A DNA stretch of 41,497 nt from a virus: UHGV virus genome UHGV-0033333. The stretch is one strand, 5' to 3'. The stretch's first letter is position 1, and each line of letters starts with the position of its first letter. Position numbers and translations under genes: made by a program. A model generated the notes under the pieces. It was given only the letters and a program-made list of their open reading frames with translations. It did not search any database and had not been told where the DNA came from. Positions 1 to 41,497 of the stretch are shown one piece after another.

Positions 1-86
1 TTATTGATTATCGCAGTTGCAATGGGAGAAATAATAGCAGCAATTGCGAGGACAGCAGTAACTGTAATTGTTAGATCAATTTTCAC
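1..86 (-). CDS. 5' part of a membrane-protein gene that runs off the window start and continues in frame into 41191..41497 (gene spans the circular junction)
   Basis: Reverse complement of 84-100 gives AAAGGAG-7nt-GTG. ORF is open from 86 down to position 1 with no stop (VKIDLTITVTAVLAIAAIISPIATAIIN...). Codon phase matches ORF 41191..41472 if base 41497 is joined to base 1. Confidence 0.4.
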   Translation of the reverse strand, partial: MKIDLTITVTAVLAIAAIISPIATAIIN

Positions 87-103
87 AAGAAAACTCCTTT
101 CAT

Positions 104-195
104 AGTACTCGGACATGGCAGTGTCCTGTAACAAAAGAATAGGAGCGGAGGAAAAGAAAGTCAATATTTTTGTCAAAACAGAAGGAGGCGAGTTG
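104..195. promoter_or_regulatory. Conserved bidirectional cassette copy A: minus-strand promoter (-35 TTGACT 164-159, 17-nt spacer, -10 TATTCT 141-136), GGACAtggcagTGTCC palindrome 111-126, plus + strand RBS GAAGGAGGCGAG
   Basis: About 95% identical to 40318-40415 and clearly related to 39600-39693 and 40796-40866. Read directly from sequence. Confidence 0.55.
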
Positions 196-306
196 ATGAA
201 AGACAGAATAATATTCTTTCTTGAAGATGCCGCTATCCCTATCATTAGCGGTATCATAGGAAGTTTTATAGGGATGGGGATAGCGATGTGGTTAGGAATA
301 TTGTGA
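196..306 (+). CDS. 36-aa hydrophobic peptide (MKDRIIFFLEDAAIPIISGIIGSFIGMGIAMWLGIL)
   Basis: ATG 196 lies 7 nt after GGAGGCGAG. The track's ATG 115 start has no RBS. One predicted TM helix. Confidence 0.35.
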   Translation: MKDRIIFFLEDAAIPIISGIIGSFIGMGIAMWLGIL

Positions 307-324
307 TCAAAGAGAGGTGAAAAA

Positions 325-540
325 ATGGTAGAAGCATATAAGCCGCTGTATACAGCAAAGCAGACAGCTCAGATTCTGTTGGTAAATGTAGCCACTGTAT
401 ACGAGCTGATGAACAAGGGGCAGCTTCCGTATCTGATTCTTGGAAAAGGAAATGGAAGTAGGAAGGTTCGTGGAAGTGATCTGGAAAAATTCATTGAAAG
501 TCAGAAACCGGCAGAACCGCAGGGAGGCACAGAAGCATGA
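325..540 (+). CDS. Excisionase/Xis-like HTH DNA-binding protein (MerR/HTH_17-type)
   Basis: 71 aa with motif TAKQTAQILLVNVATVYELMNKGQLPYLILG; RBS AGAGGTGAAAAA. Confidence 0.55.
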   Translation: MVEAYKPLYTAKQTAQILLVNVATVYELMNKGQLPYLILGKGNGSRKVRGSDLEKFIESQKPAEPQGGTEA

Positions 541-690
541 GAGATATAATTGATTCCATTCTGATCGGAGGCTGTGCAAGTTATCTTCCGTTCTGGATCT
601 GGGACAATGCGGGCGGTCAGATTGCCGGGGCACTGGCACTGATCGGAATAGTGTACATAGCAAGGAGGTGGAAAGCATGGACGAACTGAT
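538..690 (+). CDS. 50-aa small membrane protein, translationally coupled to xis (ATGA overlap)
   Basis: MRDIIDSILIGGCASYLPFWIWDNAGGQIAGALALIGIVYIARRWKAWTN. Not in track because under 60 aa. Confidence 0.3.
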
Positions 691-3161: not shown

Positions 3162-5275
3162 AGAAAAAAGAGATTGAAGGGATACCTTACCTGAAACTGA
3201 CTGCATTGAGCCAGAAGAAAGAAGCAAAGTATATCGGTGTGACTGCACTGAAAACAGTCGGCCATGAACAGCATTTTTTCCTGGAAGTATACCGGAATGA
3301 GGAAAACGCAAGGGATATCCCGGTGGTTCGCATTGTAACCACAAAGAAAGATTTTGGATCCTATTTTCCGGAAGAAGAAAAATGGACAAGACAGAAAATA
3401 CAGCCAGGCGGGGAATGTGAAAAACTGATCTGGTACAGCCGGGAAGATTCCGGGGGCTATTCTGGAATGCCAGAGAAAAATATCCTCCAGGGAGAAGAAG
3501 ACCTTGCACGGCTGAAAGCTTTTTATAAAGTTGCGCTCTGGAATGAAAAGCGGTGGTGGGAATATATCCTGAAACAGCAGGAAAACATTGTATGGACTGC
3601 CAGACGCAATGCAGAACAAAGAAAATATGAGCGCCGTCAGGAAGCACTTAATGAACGGATCCGGAATACAAAGAAACTACCGGAAAAAGCAATCCTGAAA
3701 AGGGCAGAAAAAACCAGCCTGGGGCGGACACACTATCTGTATTACAAAAAACACGGCAGCAGGGTACAGATTGCCTGCAGTAAATGCGGCGGGGTCATTG
3801 ATGCGAGATGGAGGCCGGGGGAATCATATGAAAGCCAGATCCAGAGCTGTATAGCCGAGCCGAAAGAAAGCCGGACAGGAACCTGCCCTATGTGTGGGAT
3901 ACAGGGAATCTATAAATGCCAGGGAAAAGTTAAAAGCAGCCATGGAAAAAGTATGTATATGTTCCTGGGACAGAAATACAAAGAAAAAGGAATGGTCGTT
4001 CGGTATCTGAAAATAGAAAAAGACTGGCATCTGGAACTGTGTCCTGGAGATAAAAGGCAGGAGATGCATGGCGCTTATGAAGAACTGTCTGGAGTTGAAA
4101 TTGCAAGGGTATATTTTGAACCGGGAAAAGAAATCCAGAAAGATTACCACAAGCGCAGCTGGTGTTCCGGGGAAGACTTCTGGGATGACTGCAACCTGTA
4201 TGGAACAGCCAATATTACGATCAATGCAGCACCGGTTATGGAAGAAACCTTTGAAGAGATAAAAGGAACCATCTTCCAGTACAGTGCGTTAAAAGAATAT
4301 GCGGCAGCAGTTGAAAATATAGACCTGGTTGAATATTTGAAAAAATATCAGAAAATGCCACAGATTGAATTTCTTGCAAAGGCTGGAATGACCGGAGTTA
4401 TACAGGAACTGCTTAATAACAATGAGAGTATTATCAAAAATAAAAATGCAAAAAACATAGATGGATTCCTGGGGATCAGGAGGGAAAGAGTGAAATACCT
4501 GGCTTCCAGAAATGGAAATCTGGATCTTTTAAAAGCAATGCAGGCAGAAAGAACACTGCAGAAAACGTGGACGGAGGAACAGCTGGAACAGCTGGCCGAA
4601 GCACACATGGACAAAAACAGGATCGGAATAGCAGCCAGGTATATGGGAATCCAGAAACTATTGAACCGGATCAAAAAGTATGCAGGCTGTGAATACGGTA
4701 CAGGCTGTAAAGCAGCAGGAGAGCGGATAAGACAGACAGCGATCACTTACACAGATTACCTGGGAATGAGGCTTTCCCTTGGTTACGATCTTAATAACAC
4801 GGTATACCAGTACCCTCGAGACCTTCAGGCAGAACATGACAGAATGATCTATGAAATGAACAAAGAAAAAATGGATAGACGTTTTGAAGAGGTAAAAAGG
4901 GCATATCCGGATATCAGGAAGAATTACCGTGATCTCCGGGAACGGTATTTTTATGAAGATGATATCTATCTGATCCGTCCGGCCAGATCCGCAGAGGAGA
5001 TCGTGGCAGAGGGAAGGATACTCCATCACTGTGTCGGAAGGGACTGTTATCTGAAAAAACATAATGATGGGAACAGTTTTATCCTGATGCTGCGGTTTAA
5101 AGATAGAGCAGAAACCCCGTACATTACTGTGGAGATTGACGGCTCAAAGCCACATATCATGCAGTGGTATGGATCACATGACAGAAAACCTGATGCAAAA
5201 AACATTCGGAAATGGCTGGACCAGTATATAGCCAGATTAAAGAAGAAACGGTCACTGCTGGCAAAAACTGCCTGA
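3158..5275 (+). CDS. PcfJ-like protein (705 aa) with zinc-ribbon cysteines
   Basis: C-terminal ILHHCVGRDCYLKKH...ITVEIDG motif; CxxC...CPMC cluster in the middle. The PcfK/PcfJ pairing recurs in Firmicutes plasmids and phages. Confidence 0.45.
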   Translation: MKKKEIEGIPYLKLTALSQKKEAKYIGVTALKTVGHEQHFFLEVYRNEENARDIPVVRIVTTKKDFGSYFPEEEKWTRQKIQPGGECEKLIWYSREDSGGYSGMPEKNILQGEEDLARLKAFYKVALWNEKRWWEYILKQQENIVWTARRNAEQRKYERRQEALNERIRNTKKLPEKAILKRAEKTSLGRTHYLYYKKHGSRVQIACSKCGGVIDARWRPGESYESQIQSCIAEPKESRTGTCPMCGIQGIYKCQGKVKSSHGKSMYMFLGQKYKEKGMVVRYLKIEKDWHLELCPGDKRQEMHGAYEELSGVEIARVYFEPGKEIQKDYHKRSWCSGEDFWDDCNLYGTANITINAAPVMEETFEEIKGTIFQYSALKEYAAAVENIDLVEYLKKYQKMPQIEFLAKAGMTGVIQELLNNNESIIKNKNAKNIDGFLGIRRERVKYLASRNGNLDLLKAMQAERTLQKTWTEEQLEQLAEAHMDKNRIGIAARYMGIQKLLNRIKKYAGCEYGTGCKAAGERIRQTAITYTDYLGMRLSLGYDLNNTVYQYPRDLQAEHDRMIYEMNKEKMDRRFEEVKRAYPDIRKNYRDLRERYFYEDDIYLIRPARSAEEIVAEGRILHHCVGRDCYLKKHNDGNSFILMLRFKDRAETPYITVEIDGSKPHIMQWYGSHDRKPDAKNIRKWLDQYIARLKKKRSLLAKTA

Positions 5276-24622: not shown

Positions 24623-25338
24623 TGAAAATAGGCGAATGGGACGTAAAAGAAGCCGGTGCACGCCAGCACAGAGTAACATTTGGGAATAATACGATCTCCA
24701 ACGCCAGTGAATGGGTAAAGGGGAGCCTGAACCCAACGTTGCTGGGAAATACTGTGGGATTAAAAACAATCAGGACAGTACTGGTAGTAAAAGGAAAAGA
24801 CAGGGAAGAAATTCTGGGCAGAAAAAGCCTGATCATCTCGAAATGTCTGGAACCGGTTATCCTGACGCTGGATAACTATCAGCATCGGTTTTATGCTGTT
24901 TTGAAGAAAACAGACACAGATGAAACATCTATGAACCGATGGCATCTGCTCACGCTGGAATGGAATTGTTATGAATTTGGAGACAGGATCACACAGATTT
25001 TTGAAGGGTGCGAAACAATGTCGGTTTACAATCCTGGAAATATGATCACTCCGGCAACTATTCATATTTGGCCGCAGATTGGGACAGCCACTTTGACGGT
25101 TGCAGGAATTTCAAGAAGTCTGGTGATGGAAGAAAACTATGAGGTTGTAGTAAAAAATACCGAAGCAGGAAAAGAAATCATACTGGACGGAGAGACGGGG
25201 CTTATTACAGAGGCAGGACAGATAAAAGCAGGAGACGTGGAAATATGGGAACTTCCGTCATTACTGCCTGGCGAGAATACCATAACTGTGAGCACGACTG
25301 TAAATGTAACAATAACATTTTTACCAAGATATATGTAA
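24622..25338 (+). CDS. Distal tail protein (Dit)
   Basis: ATGA overlap with TMP; 238 aa. Confidence 0.7.
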   Translation: MKIGEWDVKEAGARQHRVTFGNNTISNASEWVKGSLNPTLLGNTVGLKTIRTVLVVKGKDREEILGRKSLIISKCLEPVILTLDNYQHRFYAVLKKTDTDETSMNRWHLLTLEWNCYEFGDRITQIFEGCETMSVYNPGNMITPATIHIWPQIGTATLTVAGISRSLVMEENYEVVVKNTEAGKEIILDGETGLITEAGQIKAGDVEIWELPSLLPGENTITVSTTVNVTITFLPRYM

Positions 25339-35547: not shown

Positions 35548-35827
35548 TTGTCTACCATTTGTCTACCGTAGACAGAAATTCATATAATATAACAGGAAAT
35601 CACAGAACACGAAAACAAACATAAAACACCGATAAATGTTGATTTTAAAGCATTTTTAGGGTACAATAAAAAACCGTAGAATGCATAAAATTAACAAAAA
35701 CCTTTAAATGAAGTACATGGAAACGCTTGAATACTGATGCCGTATTTTAGCGGAATACAGGCATTTCGGACAATTAAATAATGAGGTTTGTCTACAAATT
35801 GTCTACCGTTTTTTCAGCGGTAGACAA
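35548..35827. other. Candidate attP: two clusters of TTGTCTACC integrase-type repeats flanking an AT-rich core
   Basis: TTGTCTACC at 35548-35556, 35559-35567 (with palindrome TGTCTACcGTAGACA), 35788-35796 (TTGTCTACA) and 35799-35807, plus inverted copy CGGTAGACAA at 35818-35827 overlapping the int stop. Confidence 0.45.
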
Positions 35828-37040
35828 TTTTTGCTGTAGCTGCTTCAAAAAGTTCCACTGCCTGGTTCTGCATTTTCTCCGTATTGGTTATGTAACGTTC
35901 GATGGTTGTCTTGATATTCTTATGGCCCAGGCGCTCCATGATTGCCTTAGGAGAAGCTCCGCTTTCTGCCAGAATAGTTCCATGTGTATGTCTCAGACAG
36001 TGTGCATGGAAATTTTCATAACCAAGCTTTTTCTTTATAATCCGGACACAATATTTCATGCTTTCATTATTTAACATTTCTCCATTTTCTTTTGCGATAG
36101 GCCATACTTCCGTATATCCTTCAGGAGCATTCTGATTAGCAGGAAGCCAGTGCAGATAAGATCTCTGGTCCACGTAAGTCTTTGTGTAATATTCTCCATA
36201 ACGTAACCGGTTCATTTTCATAACAGTAAGCTCTGACTTCAATAAGGATTCCAGAGTAGCACCGATTTTGATGGTGCGGAAGGAATCATATTTGGGGTTC
36301 TTGTAATACCATTTCTTATCCAGGTCTTTCTGCAGCTGTCTCTTTACTGAAAGAGTATGATTTTTAAAATCAATGTCGTGCATCAGATCAAGACCAAAAC
36401 ATTCCCCGATCCGCAGTCCGGTATAATAACAGATCATCAGAGGTAGATAGTAGTGCGTGCCATTAAAATGATTACGGATATCCTCCCACTCTTTTCCTAC
36501 ACAGACATATTCCATATGCGCCTTTGTTTCCGGATTAACCGCAACCTTTGGTACTAGGGTGAGTGAGCAGGGATTAGTCTTCAGGTACTGACAGGGATAT
36601 ATGGCGTATTTCAACGCACCGGACAAAATGCCACGGAAGTTAGCCATGCTCTGTGCAGAGAGGTCTTTTTCGTTCTTGAGACTGTCAATCCATTGCTGAA
36701 TGGCAGCAGGCGTAAGTGAGGCAAGCTTATAATGTCCAAGAGCCGGTTTGATATGTAGCTTGATAGCCGATTCATAGGCATCATAGGTATTGTCTGTACA
36801 GTTGGTTTTTACATAGCTCTGCATCCAGAAATCCAGATAATCAGACAGCGACATCTCAGATGGCCGAAACACAGTTCCTGCATTGTCATATTCAGCCTTT
36901 GCTTTAGTTCCTGCAGCAATAGCATCTGCCTTTGTCCGGAAGCCTCCTTTTGAAATAGATTTCCGTTTCCCGTCTACTCTGGCACATTCAAAACTGTATT
37001 CCCATGATTTTCCACGTTTTTTGGTTCTTAATTCGCCCAT
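35814..37040 (-). CDS. int: Tyrosine integrase
   Basis: HCLRHTHGT...LGHKNIKTTIERYIT catalytic region. RBS AAGGAAGGTGA precedes ATG at 37040 (MGELRTKKRGKSWEY...). Confidence 0.85.
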   Translation of the reverse strand: MGELRTKKRGKSWEYSFECARVDGKRKSISKGGFRTKADAIAAGTKAKAEYDNAGTVFRPSEMSLSDYLDFWMQSYVKTNCTDNTYDAYESAIKLHIKPALGHYKLASLTPAAIQQWIDSLKNEKDLSAQSMANFRGILSGALKYAIYPCQYLKTNPCSLTLVPKVAVNPETKAHMEYVCVGKEWEDIRNHFNGTHYYLPLMICYYTGLRIGECFGLDLMHDIDFKNHTLSVKRQLQKDLDKKWYYKNPKYDSFRTIKIGATLESLLKSELTVMKMNRLRYGEYYTKTYVDQRSYLHWLPANQNAPEGYTEVWPIAKENGEMLNNESMKYCVRIIKKKLGYENFHAHCLRHTHGTILAESGASPKAIMERLGHKNIKTTIERYITNTEKMQNQAVELFEAATAKIVYR

Positions 37041-37204
37041 AATATCACCTTCCTTTTTAAAATTGGGTACAAAAATAACAGCCACACAGATGTTCTGGTT
37101 GTGCGTCTGCTCCGAAGATGATACAATAATTCTTGCAAAATGAGCATCTCTTCGGAGATCTGAATCGTCCTGGTGCGCCAACACTGGGGCGATTTTTTAT
37201 AAGT

Positions 37205-37241
37205 GAAATAAAAAAGGTGCTGCCATAATGACAACACCTTT
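37205..37241 (-). terminator. Minus-strand intrinsic terminator (AAAGGTG...CACCTTT + T-run) between the immunity operon and int
   Basis: 7-bp stem; minus strand reads CACCTTTTTTATTT. Confidence 0.45.
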
Positions 37242-37249
37242 AGAAATAA

Positions 37250-37334
37250 CCTAAGTAACAAGATGGGCGGCGTATCCATCATCTCAGGTACTCTTGCGAG
37301 TGTGTCGGGAGCCTTTCCGACCTTTGTTACTTAG
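37250..37334 (-). other. 85-nt structured element: 11/12-bp closing stem (CCTAAGTAACAA / TTGTTACTTAG) enclosing internal hairpins
   Basis: Inner hairpin GTCGGgagcctttCCGAC; starts right after the stop of ORF 37338..37520. Confidence 0.35.
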
Positions 37335-37337
37335 ATA

Positions 37338-37758
37338 TTAATCTATGCCATCATTATAAGAAAATATTCTCTGTTTGTCAAATTTTTTTAACCGACCATT
37401 TTCTATTCCATGCTGTAGTTTTCCGGGCGTAATAGTGTGTAGAGTGGCAACGTAGAGATAATCTGCGGCTATGTCAAGCTTTATTCCTATTTGTACATTT
37501 TCACTCATTATCTTAACCAATTCAAAAACTTGTTCCTTTTTCGTTTGGATTCACACCGATATAATCGGGATCTTCAACAATAGAAGACAGAAAAGATAAA
37601 TACGGGAGACATTCAGGGTGTCTTTTCTCAATGTGCTTCTGCAAACCTTCTGACTGATAAATGAAATCATGATTCAAAGGCGTTGGAAGATAATTATTAA
37701 ATTGTGGATTGAATGGAGCGGCTATAAATACTTTTGATTTCATTTTTATTCCCAGCAA
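37338..37758 (-). pseudogene. Two adjacent small ORFs (78 aa and 60 aa) offset by 1 nt: possible frameshifted single gene or recoding site
   Basis: TGA at 37522-37524 is followed by in-line ORF 37338..37520, which starts only at TTG with no RBS. Upstream part contains HIEKRHPE. Confidence 0.25.
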
Positions 37759-38196: not shown

Positions 38197-38610
38197 CTAC
38201 TCTTTGTATTTCTTAGGAGTGTACTTTTCTTTGTTAATGATCTTTAATCTCTTTAAAGCAATTTCCAGTTCATCACGGAAGAGCTCTGCAGCTTCCGGAC
38301 TCAATTCCTCACCATTATAACTTGCAGGTCCATCTTCGCCAGAGGTGAGCTTTTCCATGATGTTGTCCAGATCTTTTGAAATATCTTTATTATCTTTTTC
38401 AGATAAACCGTCTGCGTCAATTCCTTTTAATAGGTAATCAGTACTCACATCAAAATAGTTTGCAATTAACAAGAGTTTTTCTGCGCTTGGATTAGGATTC
38501 GATTTCCATTTTGAAATAGTACCCTTTCCAAACCCTAATTCTTTTTCTAAATCGGATTGGTTGATTCCTTTTTTATCACAAAGAGAGATTACTCTGTTGA
38601 ATAAATTCAT
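38197..38610 (-). CDS. XRE-family HTH repressor (ImmR/CI-like)
   Basis: N-terminal HTH (QSDLEKELGFGKGTISKWKSN); acidic linker; divergent from cro. Confidence 0.8.
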   Translation of the reverse strand: MNLFNRVISLCDKKGINQSDLEKELGFGKGTISKWKSNPNPSAEKLLLIANYFDVSTDYLLKGIDADGLSEKDNKDISKDLDNIMEKLTSGEDGPASYNGEELSPEAAELFRDELEIALKRLKIINKEKYTPKKYKE

Positions 38611-38643
38611 ATCAGTCCTTTCTGAAAAAATTCAACAAAAGGC

Positions 38644-38672
38644 TTGACAAATGATGAATATATTCATATAAT
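38644..38672 (+). promoter_or_regulatory. Rightward PR-like promoter TTGACA-17-TATAAT with 14-bp perfect palindromic operator ATGAATATATTCAT (38654-38667) in the spacer
   Basis: Exact consensus hexamers and spacing. Imperfect operator copies TGAATAAATTCA (38686-38697) and TGAATATTTTCA (38789-38800). Confidence 0.55.
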
Positions 38673-38750
38673 CATATCTAACAGATGAATAAATTCAACA
38701 AAAACCTTGTAAGATGAATTATTTCAATTTAAATTTGTTTGGTTACAGAT

Positions 38751-38779
38751 ATAATAGAATATTTTCATCGGAAAGTCAA
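38751..38779 (-). promoter_or_regulatory. Leftward promoter TTGACT-17-TATTAT toward immR, face-to-face with PR
   Basis: AGTCAA at 38774-38779 and ATAATA at 38751-38756 on the + strand; same GAAAGTCAATAT context as cassettes A-C. Confidence 0.45.
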
Positions 38780-38803
38780 TATAAATGTTGAATATTTTCA
38801 TCT

Positions 38804-39022
38804 ATGAAAGGAGGAACGAAGGTGATTTATGACAATATCCGAGCAATCTGCGATAAGAAAAATATTTCTATTAAGCAGGTGGAAAGAGAACTGGGGTTTT
38901 CAAACTCAAGTATTTGCAAATGGAATGAATGTGAGCCGAGTGTTTGGAAGGTGCAGAAAGTAGCAGATTATCTTGGTGTATCTATGGAATATCTGTTATC
39001 AGACCAGAAGGAGGCAAGTTGA
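38804..39022 (+). CDS. Cro-like XRE HTH protein
   Basis: IKQVERELGFSNSSICKWN. Likely real start is GTG 38822 (AAAGGAGG + 7 nt). Confidence 0.65.
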   Translation: MKGGTKVIYDNIRAICDKKNISIKQVERELGFSNSSICKWNECEPSVWKVQKVADYLGVSMEYLLSDQKEAS

Positions 39023-39023
39023 A

Positions 39024-39212
39024 GTGCGAGAATGGATTGTACTGATTATAGCAGTAGTTTCTGTTATCCAATGGATTAAATGGAAAATCACTGCACAGGC
39101 ATTAATTTATTATAACGAGAAAAACCAATACAAACATCCCGGAAAAACAGAAATGGGAGAGTGCATTGGCTTTGTCGTGGAAAACACCATCAAAGATTTA
39201 ATTGGCCGTTGA
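39024..39212 (+). CDS. 62-aa small membrane protein after cro
   Basis: GAAGGAGG lies 9 nt before GTG 39024. N-terminal TM helix WIVLIIAVVSVIQWIKW. Confidence 0.35.
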   Translation: MREWIVLIIAVVSVIQWIKWKITAQALIYYNEKNQYKHPGKTEMGECIGFVVENTIKDLIGR

Positions 39213-39585
39213 CCATCTGAGTAAGAACGGAAGCTGCAATCTGCGATATTACATTCAGAGAAAAAGAACCTACGTTTCCACTGATCTTTTTGACTTTTTC
39301 CCAAACAGTGTCAGAACGCACGCTTTCAAGAAATTGATAGCCAGTGTATGTAATGCGGTACACATCAAGAGCAACGATTGCATCATCTCCGTCATTTCGG
39401 TAACAAACGATGAAACCTGCATCGTCAAGCACGAGTAATGTGTTGGCGATTTCTTCAATGGAAAAATTAATTTTTCCGGGAAGATCAAAAACGCTGATTT
39501 CATTAATTTCCAGATCTGAATTCATAGTGAGATTTTCTTCCAGATAAAGCATAACAGTACGAATGCATTCGGGGTTAAGTTTCAT
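39190..39585 (-). CDS. Hypothetical 131-aa protein (YjcQ-like winged-helix?, tentative)
   Basis: Driven by cassette B promoter; RBS AAAGGAG 6 nt before ATG. Confidence 0.5.
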   Translation of the reverse strand: MKLNPECIRTVMLYLEENLTMNSDLEINEISVFDLPGKINFSIEEIANTLLVLDDAGFIVCYRNDGDDAIVALDVYRITYTGYQFLESVRSDTVWEKVKKISGNVGSFSLNVISQIAASVLTQMVNGQLNL

Positions 39586-39599
39586 TTTGTTCTCCTTTC

Positions 39600-39693
39600 T
39601 TTTATTCAGACATGGCGGTGTCTCGTAATAAAAGAATAGGAGCGTAGTAGCAGAAAGTCAATATTTTTTATCAGACAAGAAGGAGGCGAGCTA
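39600..39693. promoter_or_regulatory. Conserved bidirectional cassette copy B
   Basis: AGACAtggcggTGTCT (39608-39623, covarying stem); -10 TATTCT (39638-39633); -35 TTGACT (39661-39656); + strand RBS GAAGGAGGCGAG. Confidence 0.55.
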
Positions 39694-40050
39694 ATGTTTT
39701 TTCGAAAAAAGAAAACAGAACCTAGCACCAGGCAATACCCACCAGCATTTAATGATGATCCACCATGTTTACATGTCACAACCGACTACGCAGATAATAA
39801 GATTTTTTCCCGAGAGTTACATATCGCTTTATCGGACCGCGACTGGTGTGAATTTGTAAAACAAGATTTTTATCCTCAGTTAATTGAATGGGTTCGTCAT
39901 TTGGAAAATATCGAAATTCCACATAACATTGAAAAATACTACTCAGATACTGGCAGCATTTCGGTGGCTGACCAGATAAAATCAGCCGCCGAAATGGTGG
40001 GAAAAACAGGACTCAAGTGTGTTCCGGATTCTGTAATCCACCAGAAATAA
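39694..40050 (+). CDS. Hypothetical 118-aa protein
   Basis: ATG 7 nt after GGAGGCGAG; 3' end overlaps the convergent gene 40013..40300. Confidence 0.5.
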   Translation: MFFRKKKTEPSTRQYPPAFNDDPPCLHVTTDYADNKIFSRELHIALSDRDWCEFVKQDFYPQLIEWVRHLENIEIPHNIEKYYSDTGSISVADQIKSAAEMVGKTGLKCVPDSVIHQK

Positions 40051-40300
40051 CTTTGAAATTGGGCTTAATATCAGTCTTTTCTAAATCAATAATTCCATAG
40101 CTGTCAAGAAGCCGTAACGTAAGACCTGTTGCTAAAGAGACAGATGTGGTTGCGATTATAGAAGCAAGCTGAGATGAAATAACATTAATATCTTGGGAAA
40201 AATCAATTTGAGAAAGCATGGTCTCGATTTGCTTCGAATTAGAAGAAACCAGAGATAAGGTGTTATCCATAATAAATTGATTGAGTTCTTCAGATGTCAT
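40013..40300 (-). CDS. Hypothetical 95-aa protein
   Basis: Driven by cassette C promoter; 5' UTR carries the GGACAccaccaTGTCC hairpin. Confidence 0.5.
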   Translation of the reverse strand: MTSEELNQFIMDNTLSLVSSNSKQIETMLSQIDFSQDINVISSQLASIIATTSVSLATGLTLRLLDSYGIIDLEKTDIKPNFKVISGGLQNPEHT

Positions 40301-40317
40301 AAATTATCATATTCCTT

Positions 40318-40415
40318 TCGTAATATTCGGACATGGTGGTGTCCTGTAATACAAGAATAGGAGCGGAGGAAAAGAAAGTCAATATTTTTGTTAAAACAGA
40401 AGGAGGCGAGTTGAG
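40318..40415. promoter_or_regulatory. Conserved bidirectional cassette copy C (nearly identical to A)
   Basis: GGACAtggtggTGTCC (40329-40344); -10 TATTCT (40359-40354); -35 TTGACT (40382-40377); RBS GAAGGAGGCGAG. Confidence 0.55.
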
Positions 40416-40619
40416 ATGGAGTACAAGGAATGGGAAAAACAAAGAACTGCCGCACTGGAAGTATTCCGGGAATTTTTAAAAACACTTCCGAAAAAAGGCT
40501 TTACACTGCGGCAGATGGAAATGATCGGAAATGAAGCAAAAAATGAAGTTGAAAATGTCATTACCGATATTAAAGAAAAATTAGTGCTTACTGAAGATCT
40601 GACTGACCTTCTGAAATAG
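40416..40619 (+). CDS. Hypothetical 67-aa protein
   Basis: ATG follows GGAGGCGAGTTGAG; 3' overlap with the convergent minus-strand gene. Confidence 0.5.
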   Translation: MEYKEWEKQRTAALEVFREFLKTLPKKGFTLRQMEMIGNEAKNEVENVITDIKEKLVLTEDLTDLLK

Positions 40620-40773
40620 AATCACGGATTTTCTTCAGAAGTCTGCGATACAAAACAGCAAATTCAAAAGCATTATTTTCAGTAATTGCCTCACCACGAA
40701 GTTGATAGTCGTGAATTGCTGCCTGGATAGCGAGGTCATGAGCACGCTGTTCAATACTGATATCTTTGTACAT
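40588..40773 (-). CDS. Hypothetical 61-aa protein (start MYKDISIEQ...)
   Basis: AAAGGAG lies 8 nt before ATG 40773. The track's 40791 start lacks an RBS. Confidence 0.45.
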   Translation of the reverse strand: MYKDISIEQRAHDLAIQAAIHDYQLRGEAITENNAFEFAVLYRRLLKKIRDSISEGQSDLQ

Positions 40774-40795
40774 AAAAAAATCTCCTTTCATTTTA

Positions 40796-40866
40796 CTCGG
40801 ACATGGCAGTGCCCTGTAAGAAAAAGATAGGAGAATAATAAGTAAAAGTCAACCAGAACATAGCAA
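40796..40866. promoter_or_regulatory. Cassette copy D (diverged): GGACAtggcagTGCCC, -10 TATCTT, -35 TTGACT (40852-40847)
   Basis: Shares ACTCGGACATGGCAGTG with A and AAAAGTCAACCAGA with 35325-35340. Confidence 0.45.
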
Positions 40867-41063
40867 ATTACCTATTTGGTATAGAGAAAGGAGCATAGAG
40901 GGGTGAGAAAACATAAAAGAGTAAATACGATATCAATCTTCCTTTCAGCTCTCTTGTGTGCCCTACTTAGAGCAACCGGAAAGCTGGAAGGAAACTTCGA
41001 ATTTTCTCAGACATATATGCTGCTGTATTTGTGTATCAGAAGTGTTTTAAAACAGGAGAAACA

Positions 41064-41228
41064 ATGACTAATTACATTATCTTGGCCAGTGTTTGGGTAG
41101 TTGCGCTGGTATGTTGGAGAATAATGAAAAAAATAGAACCTGAAATAGCAAGCGCTTATCTGGTATATGTCTTGATTATATGCATATTAGTTACAGCGTT
41201 TGGAGTAAGTTACTTATCTCAGGTTTAA
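41064..41228 (+). CDS. 54-aa two-TM membrane peptide (MTNYIILASVWVVALVCWRIMKK...)
   Basis: RBS AACAGGAGAAACA precedes ATG 41064. Confidence 0.4.
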   Translation: MTNYIILASVWVVALVCWRIMKKIEPEIASAYLVYVLIICILVTAFGVSYLSQV

Positions 41229-41497
41229 TTTGTTCAAGTAAAGCTGTGGCATTATCAAAATCTGAAATTATAATAGCAGAATTAATGTCAATCATAGTTT
41301 TGGCAAGATGATCAGGAGCGTAAGCAAGCGCGAGGAAATAATATTCACCGTAATCTTTTTGAGACGGACTGTCAGCATAGTGAATACATTTTCCTGTGTA
41401 TCTAAGGTACTTCTCAAAAATTGAACGAATGTAGTAAGTGGTATTTTCGAGATGCTTTTGTTCGAGTTCCATACGCTTAAGCTTAAGTTGATAACGA
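41191..41497 (-). CDS. 3' part of the junction-spanning gene (continues from 1..86); internal ATG at 41472
   Basis: Minus frame is open from 41497 to the stop at 41191. Codon phase is continuous with the window-start ORF when the ends are joined. Confidence 0.4.
   Translation of the reverse strand, partial: RYQLKLKRMELEQKHLENTTYYIRSIFEKYLRYTGKCIHYADSPSQKDYGEYYFLALAYAPDHLAKTMIDINSAIIISDFDNATALLEQIKPEISNLLQTL

Follow-up and report, generated by a model that had tools for sequence, protein, structure and literature searches.

A probable portable promoter-leader cassette ahead of backward genes in the early region of temperate Lachnospiraceae phages

Promoter-early stem-loops (PeSLs) of T4-type phages (Arbiol et al. 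2010, PMC2839356; Comeau et al. 2014, PMC4122927) are cassettes composed of a promoter and a stem-loop that flank ORFans and mediate insertions and deletions through homologous recombination and mini-circles (PMC2839356). The morons of lambdoid phages carry unrelated promoters together with a terminator, and their arrival is thought to have occurred by illegitimate recombination (PMC2839356). Of the start-associated sequences (SAS and ESAS) of Cluster K mycobacteriophages, SAS is a promoterless 13-bp element located at the ribosome-binding site (RBS) of co-directional genes (Pope et al. 2011, PMC3203893). Here, we describe four related intergenic cassettes in the virus genome UHGV-0033333 (41,497 nucleotides; this whole stretch is referred to as the window), which form an island in the early lytic operon, directly past a cro-like gene and before an HTH_17 gene, and each of which precedes a short gene that runs in the direction of the cI-like repressor gene. 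We consider it likely, with some reserve, that this element is a portable, one-directional promoter-leader cassette that is shared by temperate phages of Lachnospiraceae and is mobile, resembling morons on the one hand and PeSLs on the other.

An earlier note on this DNA, made from its letters alone, had placed four cassettes (A to D) in the window. A MAFFT alignment recovered all of them at about the same positions, as did repeat finding and a search with a profile. The cassettes, with their nhmmer scores, parts and cargo genes, are as follows (SD, Shine-Dalgarno sequence):

90–167, minus strand: cassette A (67.4 bits), cargo L130 (GTG start at 86); −35 TTGACT 164–159; CTCC 145–142; −10 TATTCT 141–136; hairpin 126–111 (GGACA CUGCCA UGUCC); SD GAAAGGAG at 101–94, followed by UUUUCUU.
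39591–39663, minus strand: cassette B (50.4 bits), cargo L131; −35 39661–39656; −10 39638–39633; hairpin 39623–39608 (AGACA/UGUCU); SD 39599–39592.
40308–40384, minus strand: cassette C (58.8 bits), cargo L95; −35 40382–40377; −10 40359–40354; hairpin 40344–40329; SD-like GAAAGGAA 40319–40312.
40778–40855, minus strand: cassette D (63.5 bits), cargo L61; −35 40852–40847; −10 TATCTT 40829–40824; hairpin 40814–40799; SD 40789–40782, followed by seven U.

Cassette A belongs to the same island as the others, as the window, of about 41.5 kb, represents the complete genome of a temperate phage in circularly permuted form. Its two ends (1 and 41497), when read together, form one unbroken region, in which a minus-strand open reading frame (ORF) of 130 aa, with a GTG start at 86–84, crosses from position 1 to position 41497 and extends to 41191. 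Used as a query, the joined L130 protein retrieved 104 homologue clusters, mostly full-length at 130–131 aa, and the circular join is therefore real, in keeping with the statement of the earlier note that the array continues into 1–306.

The sequence likeness among the four copies was close to what had been claimed. The cores of A and C, described as about 95% identical, agree at 83 of 88 positions (94%; 109–196 versus 40327–40414), and over about 108 nt the identity amounts to 88% for A and C, 80% for A and B, and 67% for A and D. A 29-nt core pattern occurs twice versus 0.00 occurrences expected from shuffles, and GGACA-N6-TGTCC with no more than one mismatch gave six matches versus 0.85 expected. 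The minus-strand promoter-like sites, one of sigma-A type for each leftward gene, were likewise confirmed, namely TTGACT-17-TATTCT at 164–136, 39661–39633 and 40382–40354, and TTGACT-17-TATCTT at 40852–40824. Three other details held in part: (i) the hairpin GGACA-N6-TGTCC, assigned to every cassette, is found in A and C, but B carries AGACA/TGTCT, a compensated change, and D carries GGACA/TGCCC, which pairs only as G·U on the minus-strand RNA; (ii) the leftward RBS AAAGGAG is present except in C, which has AAAGGAA; and (iii) the rightward RBS is missing from D, which lacks GAAGGAGGCGAG.

The cassette is not confined to this genome. While a strict degenerate pattern covering all four window copies returned four IMG/VR contigs, a looser 18-nt pattern (CATGG..GT..C..GTA........ATAGGAG) matched at least 120 IMG/VR contigs and 24 of 185,579 GTDB species genomes. 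Among the matches listed, the labels were nearly all of Lachnospiraceae (Dorea, Blautia, Acetatifactor, Faecalimonas), the remainder being one Subdoligranulum variabile metagenome-assembled genome (MAG), one Ruminococcus MAG and one "uncultured bacterium". The profile, derived from such matches, then yielded 206 copies in 148 viral or Lachnospiraceae loci (1.33 Mb), 39 of which hold two to five copies, always co-oriented and 450–1300 nt apart. Blastn of the whole island against INPHARED gave no match, and a short permissive blastn with cassette A led to the cultured Ruminococcus gnavus phages phiRg507T2/2 and phiRg507T2/3, in which a cassette (62.8 bits) stands ahead of gp27, a 51-aa gene lying backwards within the cro-to-ERF early operon, on the strand of cI and the integrase; in phiRg507T2/2 this cassette occupies about 24978–25059 of MT980836.1. 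The paper on these two phages does not mention promoters (PMC10072058).

The orientation of the copies was uniform. For every cassette with an XRE-family gene in its locus, this gene is situated downstream as the cassette points (136 of 136 cassettes), and in 129 of these 136 cases an XRE gene is on the same strand. XRE-type HTH genes were the commonest neighbours (101 of 148 loci), followed by Bro-N antirepressors and serine integrases. Judged by their promoter-like sites, the cassettes would thus direct transcription out of the early region and toward the lysogeny module (cI, integrase) in all 136 scorable cases. The layout, which the earlier note had regarded as not standard, is in fact recurrent, in view of both this cI-ward orientation and the 39 multi-cassette loci. 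There is, in our estimation, next to no chance that the cassette is a generic host repeat or a chance likeness unlinked to the flanking genes, the alternative that the earlier note itself had named. The general AT-richness of the region is all that speaks for it, and it is opposed by the shuffles, which expect zero matches to the core pattern, by the rarity of the looser pattern among the GTDB genomes, by the constant place of the cassette directly upstream of a start codon with fixed SD spacing, and by the uniform pointing of the 136 copies toward the XRE gene.

Leftward transcription within an early right operon is familiar from phage lambda, where P_RE, oop and P_aQ provide leftward promoters or antisense RNAs; the promoters are weak, depend on CII and come without accessory cargo. 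Like them, the cassettes are located past cro and point toward cI, and their RNAs would be antisense to early genes. Unlike them, the cassettes have good −35 and −10 hexamers, and each comes with a protein-coding gene.

On the gene strand, the consensus consists of TTGNNN, a 17-bp spacer, TATNNT preceded by CTCC, 5 nt, UAC A, a 5-bp stem closed by a CUGCCA loop, GAGUA, 4–6 nt, GAAAGGAG, and 7–10 nt up to the start codon. The conserved unit is about 80 bases long (conserved cassettes measure roughly 80–100 bp). TTG and TATNNT are conserved, and the promoter spacer is 17 bp in 132 of 134 distinct copies. In several respects the element recalls SAS, as it is a conserved repeat of one orientation, places an SD-like AGGAG before the start codons of unrelated non-structural genes, often has an inverted repeat alongside, and is phage-specific and rare in the host. 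It differs from SAS in its length of about 80 nt, in including a promoter, and in marking reverse-oriented genes.

With transcription predicted to start 6–8 nt past the −10 hexamer, the hairpin would lie about 3 nt from the 5′ end of the leader. RNAalifold, applied to 93 distinct sequences, independently gave exactly the 5-bp stem, with double changes at four of the five pairs, and six stem sequences were distinguished: GGGCA/UGCCC, GGACA/UGUCC, GGCAU/AUGCC, GGCUC/GAGCC, GGUGU/ACACC and GGGUA/UACCC. The form GGACA-N6-TGTCC, presented in the earlier note as a fixed hairpin, is hence one variant of a covarying RNA hairpin. Pairing was observed in 93.8% of stem cells versus 85.8% after shuffling, and 57 cells were changed on both sides versus 16.6 after shuffling (none of 500 shuffles reached the observed value in either test), while sliding the 3′ partner left 17–47% of cells paired. 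Moreover, the gene strand shows 42 G·U cells versus 14 A·C cells, the latter corresponding to G·U on the other strand, which favours a hairpin acting in the leftward transcript, with the reservation that the sequences are not independent of one another. The hairpin is hence a conserved structure, which most likely acts as RNA. The loop CUGCCA (C-N-G-C-C-A) and the flanking UAC and GAGUA are conserved while the stem covaries, and no covariation was detected for the flanking UAC/GUA pairs among the copies. No cassette matched an Rfam family at the gathering threshold or at E ≤ 10. We also considered a coding leader and rejected it. The AUG of the hairpin is in frame with the cargo gene in 32 of 125 copies, a share close to the one-third that chance would give, which indicates that the conserved leader is not an N-terminal peptide; out of frame, this AUG opens upstream ORFs of 2–39 codons.

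Stems also differ inside single genomes, with three variants in the window and GGCAU, GGCUC and GGGCA in locus L142, and this variety argues against a single DNA-binding protein that reads the sequence. It bears directly on the idea that GGACA-N6-TGTCC, at +4 to +19, serves as a double-stranded DNA operator for a dimeric phage repressor that would join the backward genes into one regulon, in the manner of Aca and acr promoters. We hold this idea to be very doubtful. The element is indeed palindromic and overlaps the predicted start in every copy, a typical position for a repressor, and XRE-family genes are its commonest neighbours; however, complementarity is kept in spite of the variation of the stems within genomes, the G·U excess is on one strand, the conserved loop is asymmetric, and the operator motif of the switch region (see below) is a different one that is absent from the cassettes. 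Alternatively, the hairpin together with its loop and GAGUA might be a site in nascent RNA for a phage or host protein, such as boxB/nut with N or a translational operator, permitting joint switching of the backward genes or modification of RNA polymerase. The covariation of the stem around a constant 6-nt loop, UAC and GAGUA fits this proposal, as do the hairpin's position directly past the promoter in every copy and the fact that structural insulation alone needs no conserved loop. The hairpin geometry and conserved loop past a promoter would suit a lambda-type nut (boxA/boxB) site, at which an N-like antiterminator lets polymerase read through downstream terminators, but an N-like protein and downstream terminators were not identified. 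The families common near the cassettes are limited to XRE, Bro-N and integrases, with no candidate RNA-binding protein among them, antitermination seems unnecessary for a single short gene per cassette, and Rfam offered no match, so that we rate this alternative as unlikely.

Diverged variants of the cassette were noticed at L148 2357–2438 and 4568–4630 and at L156 2919–2997, with the hairpins GGGC-ACU-GCCC, GGCUC/GAGCC and GGCUG/CAGCC. The backward gene behind the L148 copy at 4568–4630 had been missed by the gene callers of the source assembly, and backward cargo genes are probably under-annotated in public data.

A second level of structure involves the CTCC-TAT upstream of the start, which is complementary to AAAGGAG, the two forming the outer arms of an imperfect palindrome of about 55 nt. 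The inner hairpin alone folds at −4.9 kcal/mol, and the segment from CTCC to GGAG folds at a mean of −14.6 kcal/mol, compared with −11.0 kcal/mol once its left arm is shuffled (p = 4e-17). The minimum free energy structure shows CTCC paired with the SD in 89 of 101 distinct copies. In folds of the window copies, the SD is unpaired or marginally paired in an RNA begun at the predicted start, whereas adding the left arm sequesters it (−12.6 to −19.9 kcal/mol, z −2.2 to −6.1), the extended hairpin of cassette B being the most stable (−19.9 kcal/mol, z = −6.1). In addition, the 8 nt past the SD contain a mean of 3.2 T versus 1.75 in other SD-to-start spacers, with four or more T in 43% of copies versus 13% of the background, and terminator-like tails follow the SD in A (UUUUCUU) and D (U7). 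Since CTCC would pair with the SD in read-through RNA, the cassette probably insulates each backward gene. The outer palindrome would exist only in RNA entering from upstream, where it would sequester the SD, and where a U-tract follows (A, D) such RNA would in part be terminated. Translation would be confined to transcripts that begin at the promoter of the cassette itself, and each module would thereby be insulated. Early lytic transcription, running on the opposite strand, should pass, because no U-tract follows there.

The earlier note had described the cassettes as bidirectional. However, the unit conserved in the 148 loci comprises promoter, leader hairpin and SD and is leftward only, the GAAGGAGGCGAG part being a copy of the cro end. 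The features on the early strand and the borders of the island are listed here (TM, transmembrane):

38804–39022, plus strand: cro-like HTH gene (Pfam HTH_3/HTH_26), left border of the variable island.
38988–39025, plus strand: junction made of the cro 3′ end and the next RBS (repeat family D3).
39024–39212, plus strand: R62, 62 aa, one TM helix, with homologues in loci L003, L036 and L091.
39694–40050, plus strand: R118, with seven homologue clusters at 70–96% identity.
40416–40619, plus strand: R67, early-strand ORF.
40903–41067, plus strand: R54a, early-strand ORF, GTG start.
41064–41228, plus strand: R54b, 54-aa peptide with two TM helices, convergent with L130.
196–306, plus strand: R36, 36-aa TM peptide, directly after cro in the relative L123.
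326–541, plus strand: HTH_17 excisionase-like (xis-like) gene (Pfam PF12728), right border of the island.

In A, B and C, the segment with the rightward RBS corresponds to the last ~25 nt of cro plus the next RBS, and copies of this junction form the right-hand parts of A (165–195), B (39662–39693) and C (40383–40415). The GAAGGAGGCGAG part occurs in close relatives only; in L003 and L063 the segment past the −35 keeps still more of the cro 3′ end, and window positions 163–312 align across the cro end and R36 of L123. Beyond the −35, other phage groups carry unrelated sequence, which makes the conserved unit one-directional, and the rightward part is a scar, specific to this lineage, left by insertion at the cro-distal junction. 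No conserved rightward promoter was found in the cassettes, the lone 9/12 match (40281–40310) being unique to C. This agrees with the placement of the rightward genes, in the earlier note, within the cro-distal early transcript: they lack a promoter of their own, and homologues of R118, whose seven homologue clusters mark it as a real gene, sit in ordinary early operons, followed by a different backward gene with a diverged cassette. No homologue of R67 was present in the fetched loci. The alternating pattern of the island thus results from backward modules interleaved with ordinary early genes. The gene sizes given before were right, with R62 and R54b as two further rightward ORFs, and the TM peptides of the rightward strand include R36, R62 and R54b; neither R118 nor R67 is hydrophobic. 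Convergent overlaps of 32–38 nt hold for R118/L95 (38), R67/L61 (32) and R54b/L130 (38), but R62/L131 overlap by 23 nt.

The cargo on the other strand of the window consists of four genes:

39190–39585, minus strand: L131, a 131-aa DUF2513 (YjcQ-like) protein (Pfam PF10711, E = 1.9e-19; phrog_585).
40013–40300, minus strand: L95, 95 aa, cargo of cassette C.
40588–40773, minus strand: L61, 61 aa, ATG at 40773, 8 nt past the SD.
41191–41497, minus strand: L130, 3′ part, cargo of cassette A.
1–86, minus strand: L130, 5′ part, GTG start at 86–84.

The ORFs behind the 206 copies encode 122 distinct proteins in 57 unrelated clusters, mostly of 50–290 aa and mostly without a family; those that could be recognized belong to DUF2513 (as does L131, homologues of which stand behind cassettes in 11 loci), Abi_alpha, DUF4145 and KTSC. 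For the window cargo, DUF2513 was the sole identification obtained with Pfam and PHROGs, PADLOC gave no match for window proteins, and L95 had neither a family match nor a homologue in the fetched loci. The family model of L130 (predicted local distance difference test score of 92) places a TM helix at the N terminus, ahead of a four-helix bundle, and its fold matches were generic helical bundles only, hence uninformative. Many of the 50–60-aa cargo proteins, including L61, display an N-terminal helix "E..AHDLA...", then "L(S/T).(D/E)E" and then "Y..xY". These proteins may constitute one fast-evolving superfamily; BLAST and jackhmmer failed to unite them.

One pair of genes behaved as a unit. 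Homologues of L130 at 69%, 57% and 48% identity occur in three other lineages, each as a lone backward gene on the strand of a cI/S24 repressor and the integrase, converging on a 51–54-aa homologue of R54b with two TM helices, and the overlap is 32–38 nt in all four lineages, which comprise the window and loci L153–L160. Upstream of these homologues, a recognizable cassette is present in four loci (30 bits, stem GGCUG/CAGCC) and a degenerate one in three, which implies that L130 and R54b form a two-gene module to which the cassette is an exchangeable front end. The pair may be a membrane-acting module whose two genes are divided between the lytic and the lysogeny strand.

In Firmicutes prophages, type I toxin-antitoxin loci consist of a toxin mRNA and an antisense RNA that are convergent and overlap at their 3′ ends. 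The island shares with them the convergent units, the overlapping 3′ ends and a small membrane peptide as one partner (here R54b, R62, R36). It differs in that the opposing transcript encodes a conserved protein (L130 with its homologue clusters), in that the pairing is conserved for some pairs only, and in that no toxin family was recognized. One might view the units as two-gene toxin-antitoxin or exclusion modules, in which an early-strand membrane peptide and a lysogeny-strand partner control each other by convergent overlapping transcription. The co-conserved, convergent L130/R54b pair (four lineages, 48–100% identity) speaks for this, together with a pair of families (F5–F9) that is fixed in 21 of 24 loci and overlaps by 31 nt, but fixed pairs may reflect no more than close kinship of the loci. 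A convergent neighbour faces 77 of the 113 driven genes with a scorable downstream neighbour, and 27 of 35 distinct convergent family pairs overlap, by 4–59 nt, the background gene calls being too crude for a comparison with ordinary packing. Several rightward ORFs are, in addition, TM peptides. Other pairs are not fixed, however: R118 homologues face a different backward gene, and the partners of DUF2513 proteins vary. The leftward partners are proteins rather than small RNAs, R118 and R67 lack hydrophobic character, and toxin or antitoxin families and PADLOC gave no match for the window proteins. The term "TA-like", used in the earlier note, therefore finds a hint in the L130/R54b pair only, and as a general account of the units it appears quite unlikely to us.

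The island is mosaic among relatives. In the close relatives L001, L004, L006, L048, L063, L024 and L113, Cro is about 95% identical to that of the window, and in L006, L048 and L004 the HTH_17 protein is about 96–97% identical. DNA homology with these relatives stops at the cro stop codon (39022/39023) and resumes at 309, and between these points the cassettes alone match. The interval from cro to the HTH_17 gene is 1269 nt at its shortest, with one cassette, and 2803 nt at its longest, in the window with four. Locus L003 has a different cI and cro, yet the stretch from the junction (38969) to the −35 of cassette B (39661), with R62, L131 and cassette B itself, is common to it and the window, and the similarity ends exactly at that −35. 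The description of a modular, duplicated, moron-like island is supported by this insert, which is present or absent between conserved neighbours among relatives. On these comparisons, the cassette probably supplies homology for module exchange. The nearest host-genome matches of the window were Blautia prophages, namely locus L147 (Blautia sp. HCP28S3_G10, 94% over 1.4 kb) and locus L131 (B. intestinalis).

Of the described systems, the cassette is most like PeSLs and morons. As in PeSLs, an intergenic motif of about 100 bp unites a sigma-70-type promoter, a stem-loop and an SD, is repeated in plastic regions ahead of ORFan-like genes (here the 57 unrelated cargo clusters), marks the breakpoints of insertions, deletions and replacements between close relatives (cro stop, 309, −35 of cassette B), and has been proposed to carry its own transcriptional insulation. 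Nevertheless, the cassette is not a PeSL by phage type, by orientation, or by the nature and position of its stem-loop: (i) the carriers are temperate phages of Gram-positive Lachnospiraceae (integrase, cI, ImmA) instead of lytic T4-like myoviruses; (ii) the cassettes oppose the early operon and face cI, whereas PeSLs are early promoters co-directional with the genes of their region; (iii) the hairpin is fixed in the 5′ untranslated region and has a covarying stem and a conserved loop, whereas the PeSL stem-loop is G/C-rich and variable in position; and (iv) a terminator function, predicted from folds and T tails, would be at best partial. With morons the cassette-cargo unit shares the extra gene between conserved neighbours, present or absent among relatives, with its own promoter-like site and plausible expression in the prophage. 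In contrast to morons, dozens of unrelated genes have one conserved promoter-leader in common, and no terminator was seen downstream of any window cargo gene, the 3′ ends overlapping the convergent neighbour instead. An integron-type attC array, in which co-oriented cassettes without promoters alternate with imperfect palindromes beside an IntI-type integrase and a Pc promoter, was considered and set aside, as each unit has its own promoter and is interleaved with opposite-strand genes, and the loci carry tyrosine or serine phage integrases and thus no common recombinase.

Regarding the control of the putative promoters, seven operator-like palindromes (ATGAATAWATTCAT, at most three mismatches) cluster at 38597–38801, between cI and cro, and are probably the immunity operators, given this location. 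No such switch-region palindrome was detected in the cassettes, and cI operators within them were therefore discarded as a candidate. Their absence is consistent with repressor-independent expression in the lysogen. A leftward TTGACT-17-TATTAT site at 38779–38751 shares the −35 context GAAAGTCAATAT with the cassettes.

As a mechanism, we propose that the cassette promoter fires independently of the immunity repressor, as the lack of the switch-region operator in any cassette would allow, so that the cargo would be made in the lysogen, as with a moron. The 5′-proximal hairpin would act at the RNA level, as an mRNA stabilizer or as a protein-binding site. The cassettes of about 80–100 bp and, in this lineage, the duplicated cro-end junction would serve as homology patches through which gene modules could be inserted, lost and swapped, as by PeSLs in T4-type phages.

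Several observations weigh against this account or parts of it. Concerning insulation, four or more T follow the SD in only 43% of copies, and not in B and C, so termination cannot be general. Exchange of left and right arms between copies was only weakly positive (chimeras, −12.6 versus −12.0 kcal/mol, p = 0.014), for which reason a specific covariation of the −10-proximal with the SD-proximal arms was abandoned and generic complementarity alone is claimed. CTCC and GGAG are almost invariant and the outer helix is without covariation, which is expectable because both arms are constrained by other functions, and CTCC stands almost always directly ahead of the −10, a frequency inflated by the search pattern, which demanded CTCC. 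The conserved loop and GAGUA are left unexplained by a pure stabilizer or insulator model. One L130 homologue (L159) is without any cassette, so that the cassette is dispensable for that cargo; upstream of the L130 homologues, an unrelated TGGTATAAT promoter is present in one locus. Breaks at the cassette edge would also be expected if a module and its promoter had moved by other means. Finally, the putative promoter activity, start site and expression in the lysogen rest on consensus matches.

A bolder version of this proposal would make the cassette a three-in-one mobile "socket" of gut Lachnospiraceae phages, combining a constitutive promoter, a strand-specific insulator and a 5′ hairpin read by a factor, with arrays that both shuffle genes by homology and act as counter-promoters stabilizing lysogeny. 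We regard it as speculative and rather unlikely. If it were true, the insulator would be an anti-SD plus terminator palindrome that silences read-through RNA while the lytic transcript passes, socket arrays would capture accessory genes like an integron without an integrase, and leftward transcription from the sockets would oppose leaky early lytic transcription, as P_RE or oop do.

The remainder of the genome conforms to a temperate phage, the gene order being a GH25-type lysin region, integrase, skipping-rope RNA, ImmA-type gene, cI-like gene, cro-like gene, island and HTH_17 gene. The features of the lysogeny side are:

35814–37184, minus strand: tyrosine integrase.
37254–37331 (with flanks 37206–37379), minus strand: skipping-rope RNA (Rfam RF02924, 74.4 bits versus a gathering score of 36.7).
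Between the skipping-rope RNA and the cI-like gene: ImmA-type M78 peptidase.
38197–38610, minus strand: cI-like repressor.

The skipping-rope RNA, situated between the integrase and the PBECR3-like and ImmA genes, has its own TTGACA-17-TATAAT promoter and a terminator, and its region is 87–93% conserved in loci L113, L093, L131 and L147. A kissing interaction with this RNA was rejected, as its UGGCAG lies inside a terminator stem and is variable among relatives. Directly downstream of ImmA, a 78-aa ORF (37522–37758, minus strand) matches PBECR3 (Barnase/EndoU/ColicinE5/RelE-like) with 29.9 bits at a cut-off of 30, over part of the profile, and may be a truncated toxin-like gene. On the other side of the island, a strong terminator-like minus-strand hairpin (1109–1134; 11 pairs, then a T-run) and a 14-nt inverted repeat (1197–1228) occupy a gap of about 190 nt ahead of a gene starting near 1297, where a TG-extended promoter-like site is also found on the minus strand (1198–1170).

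In the human gut, the temperate phages of Lachnospiraceae count among the most common phages, and their accessory genes are for the most part uncharacterized. The conserved promoter-leader offers a handle with which candidate lysogen-expressed genes can be searched for in metagenomes, and its hairpin is a covarying RNA element without any matching Rfam family. As a cultured phage-host pair, phiRg507T2/2 on R. gnavus JCM 6515T, carries the cassette, the proposals made here are directly testable. The cassette may also find use as a compact, insulated expression part for Lachnospiraceae. For the biology of these phages, it would illustrate for a second time, and independently, the principle known from PeSLs that a regulatory cassette can also serve as a recombination linker, here in a temperate, Gram-positive setting.

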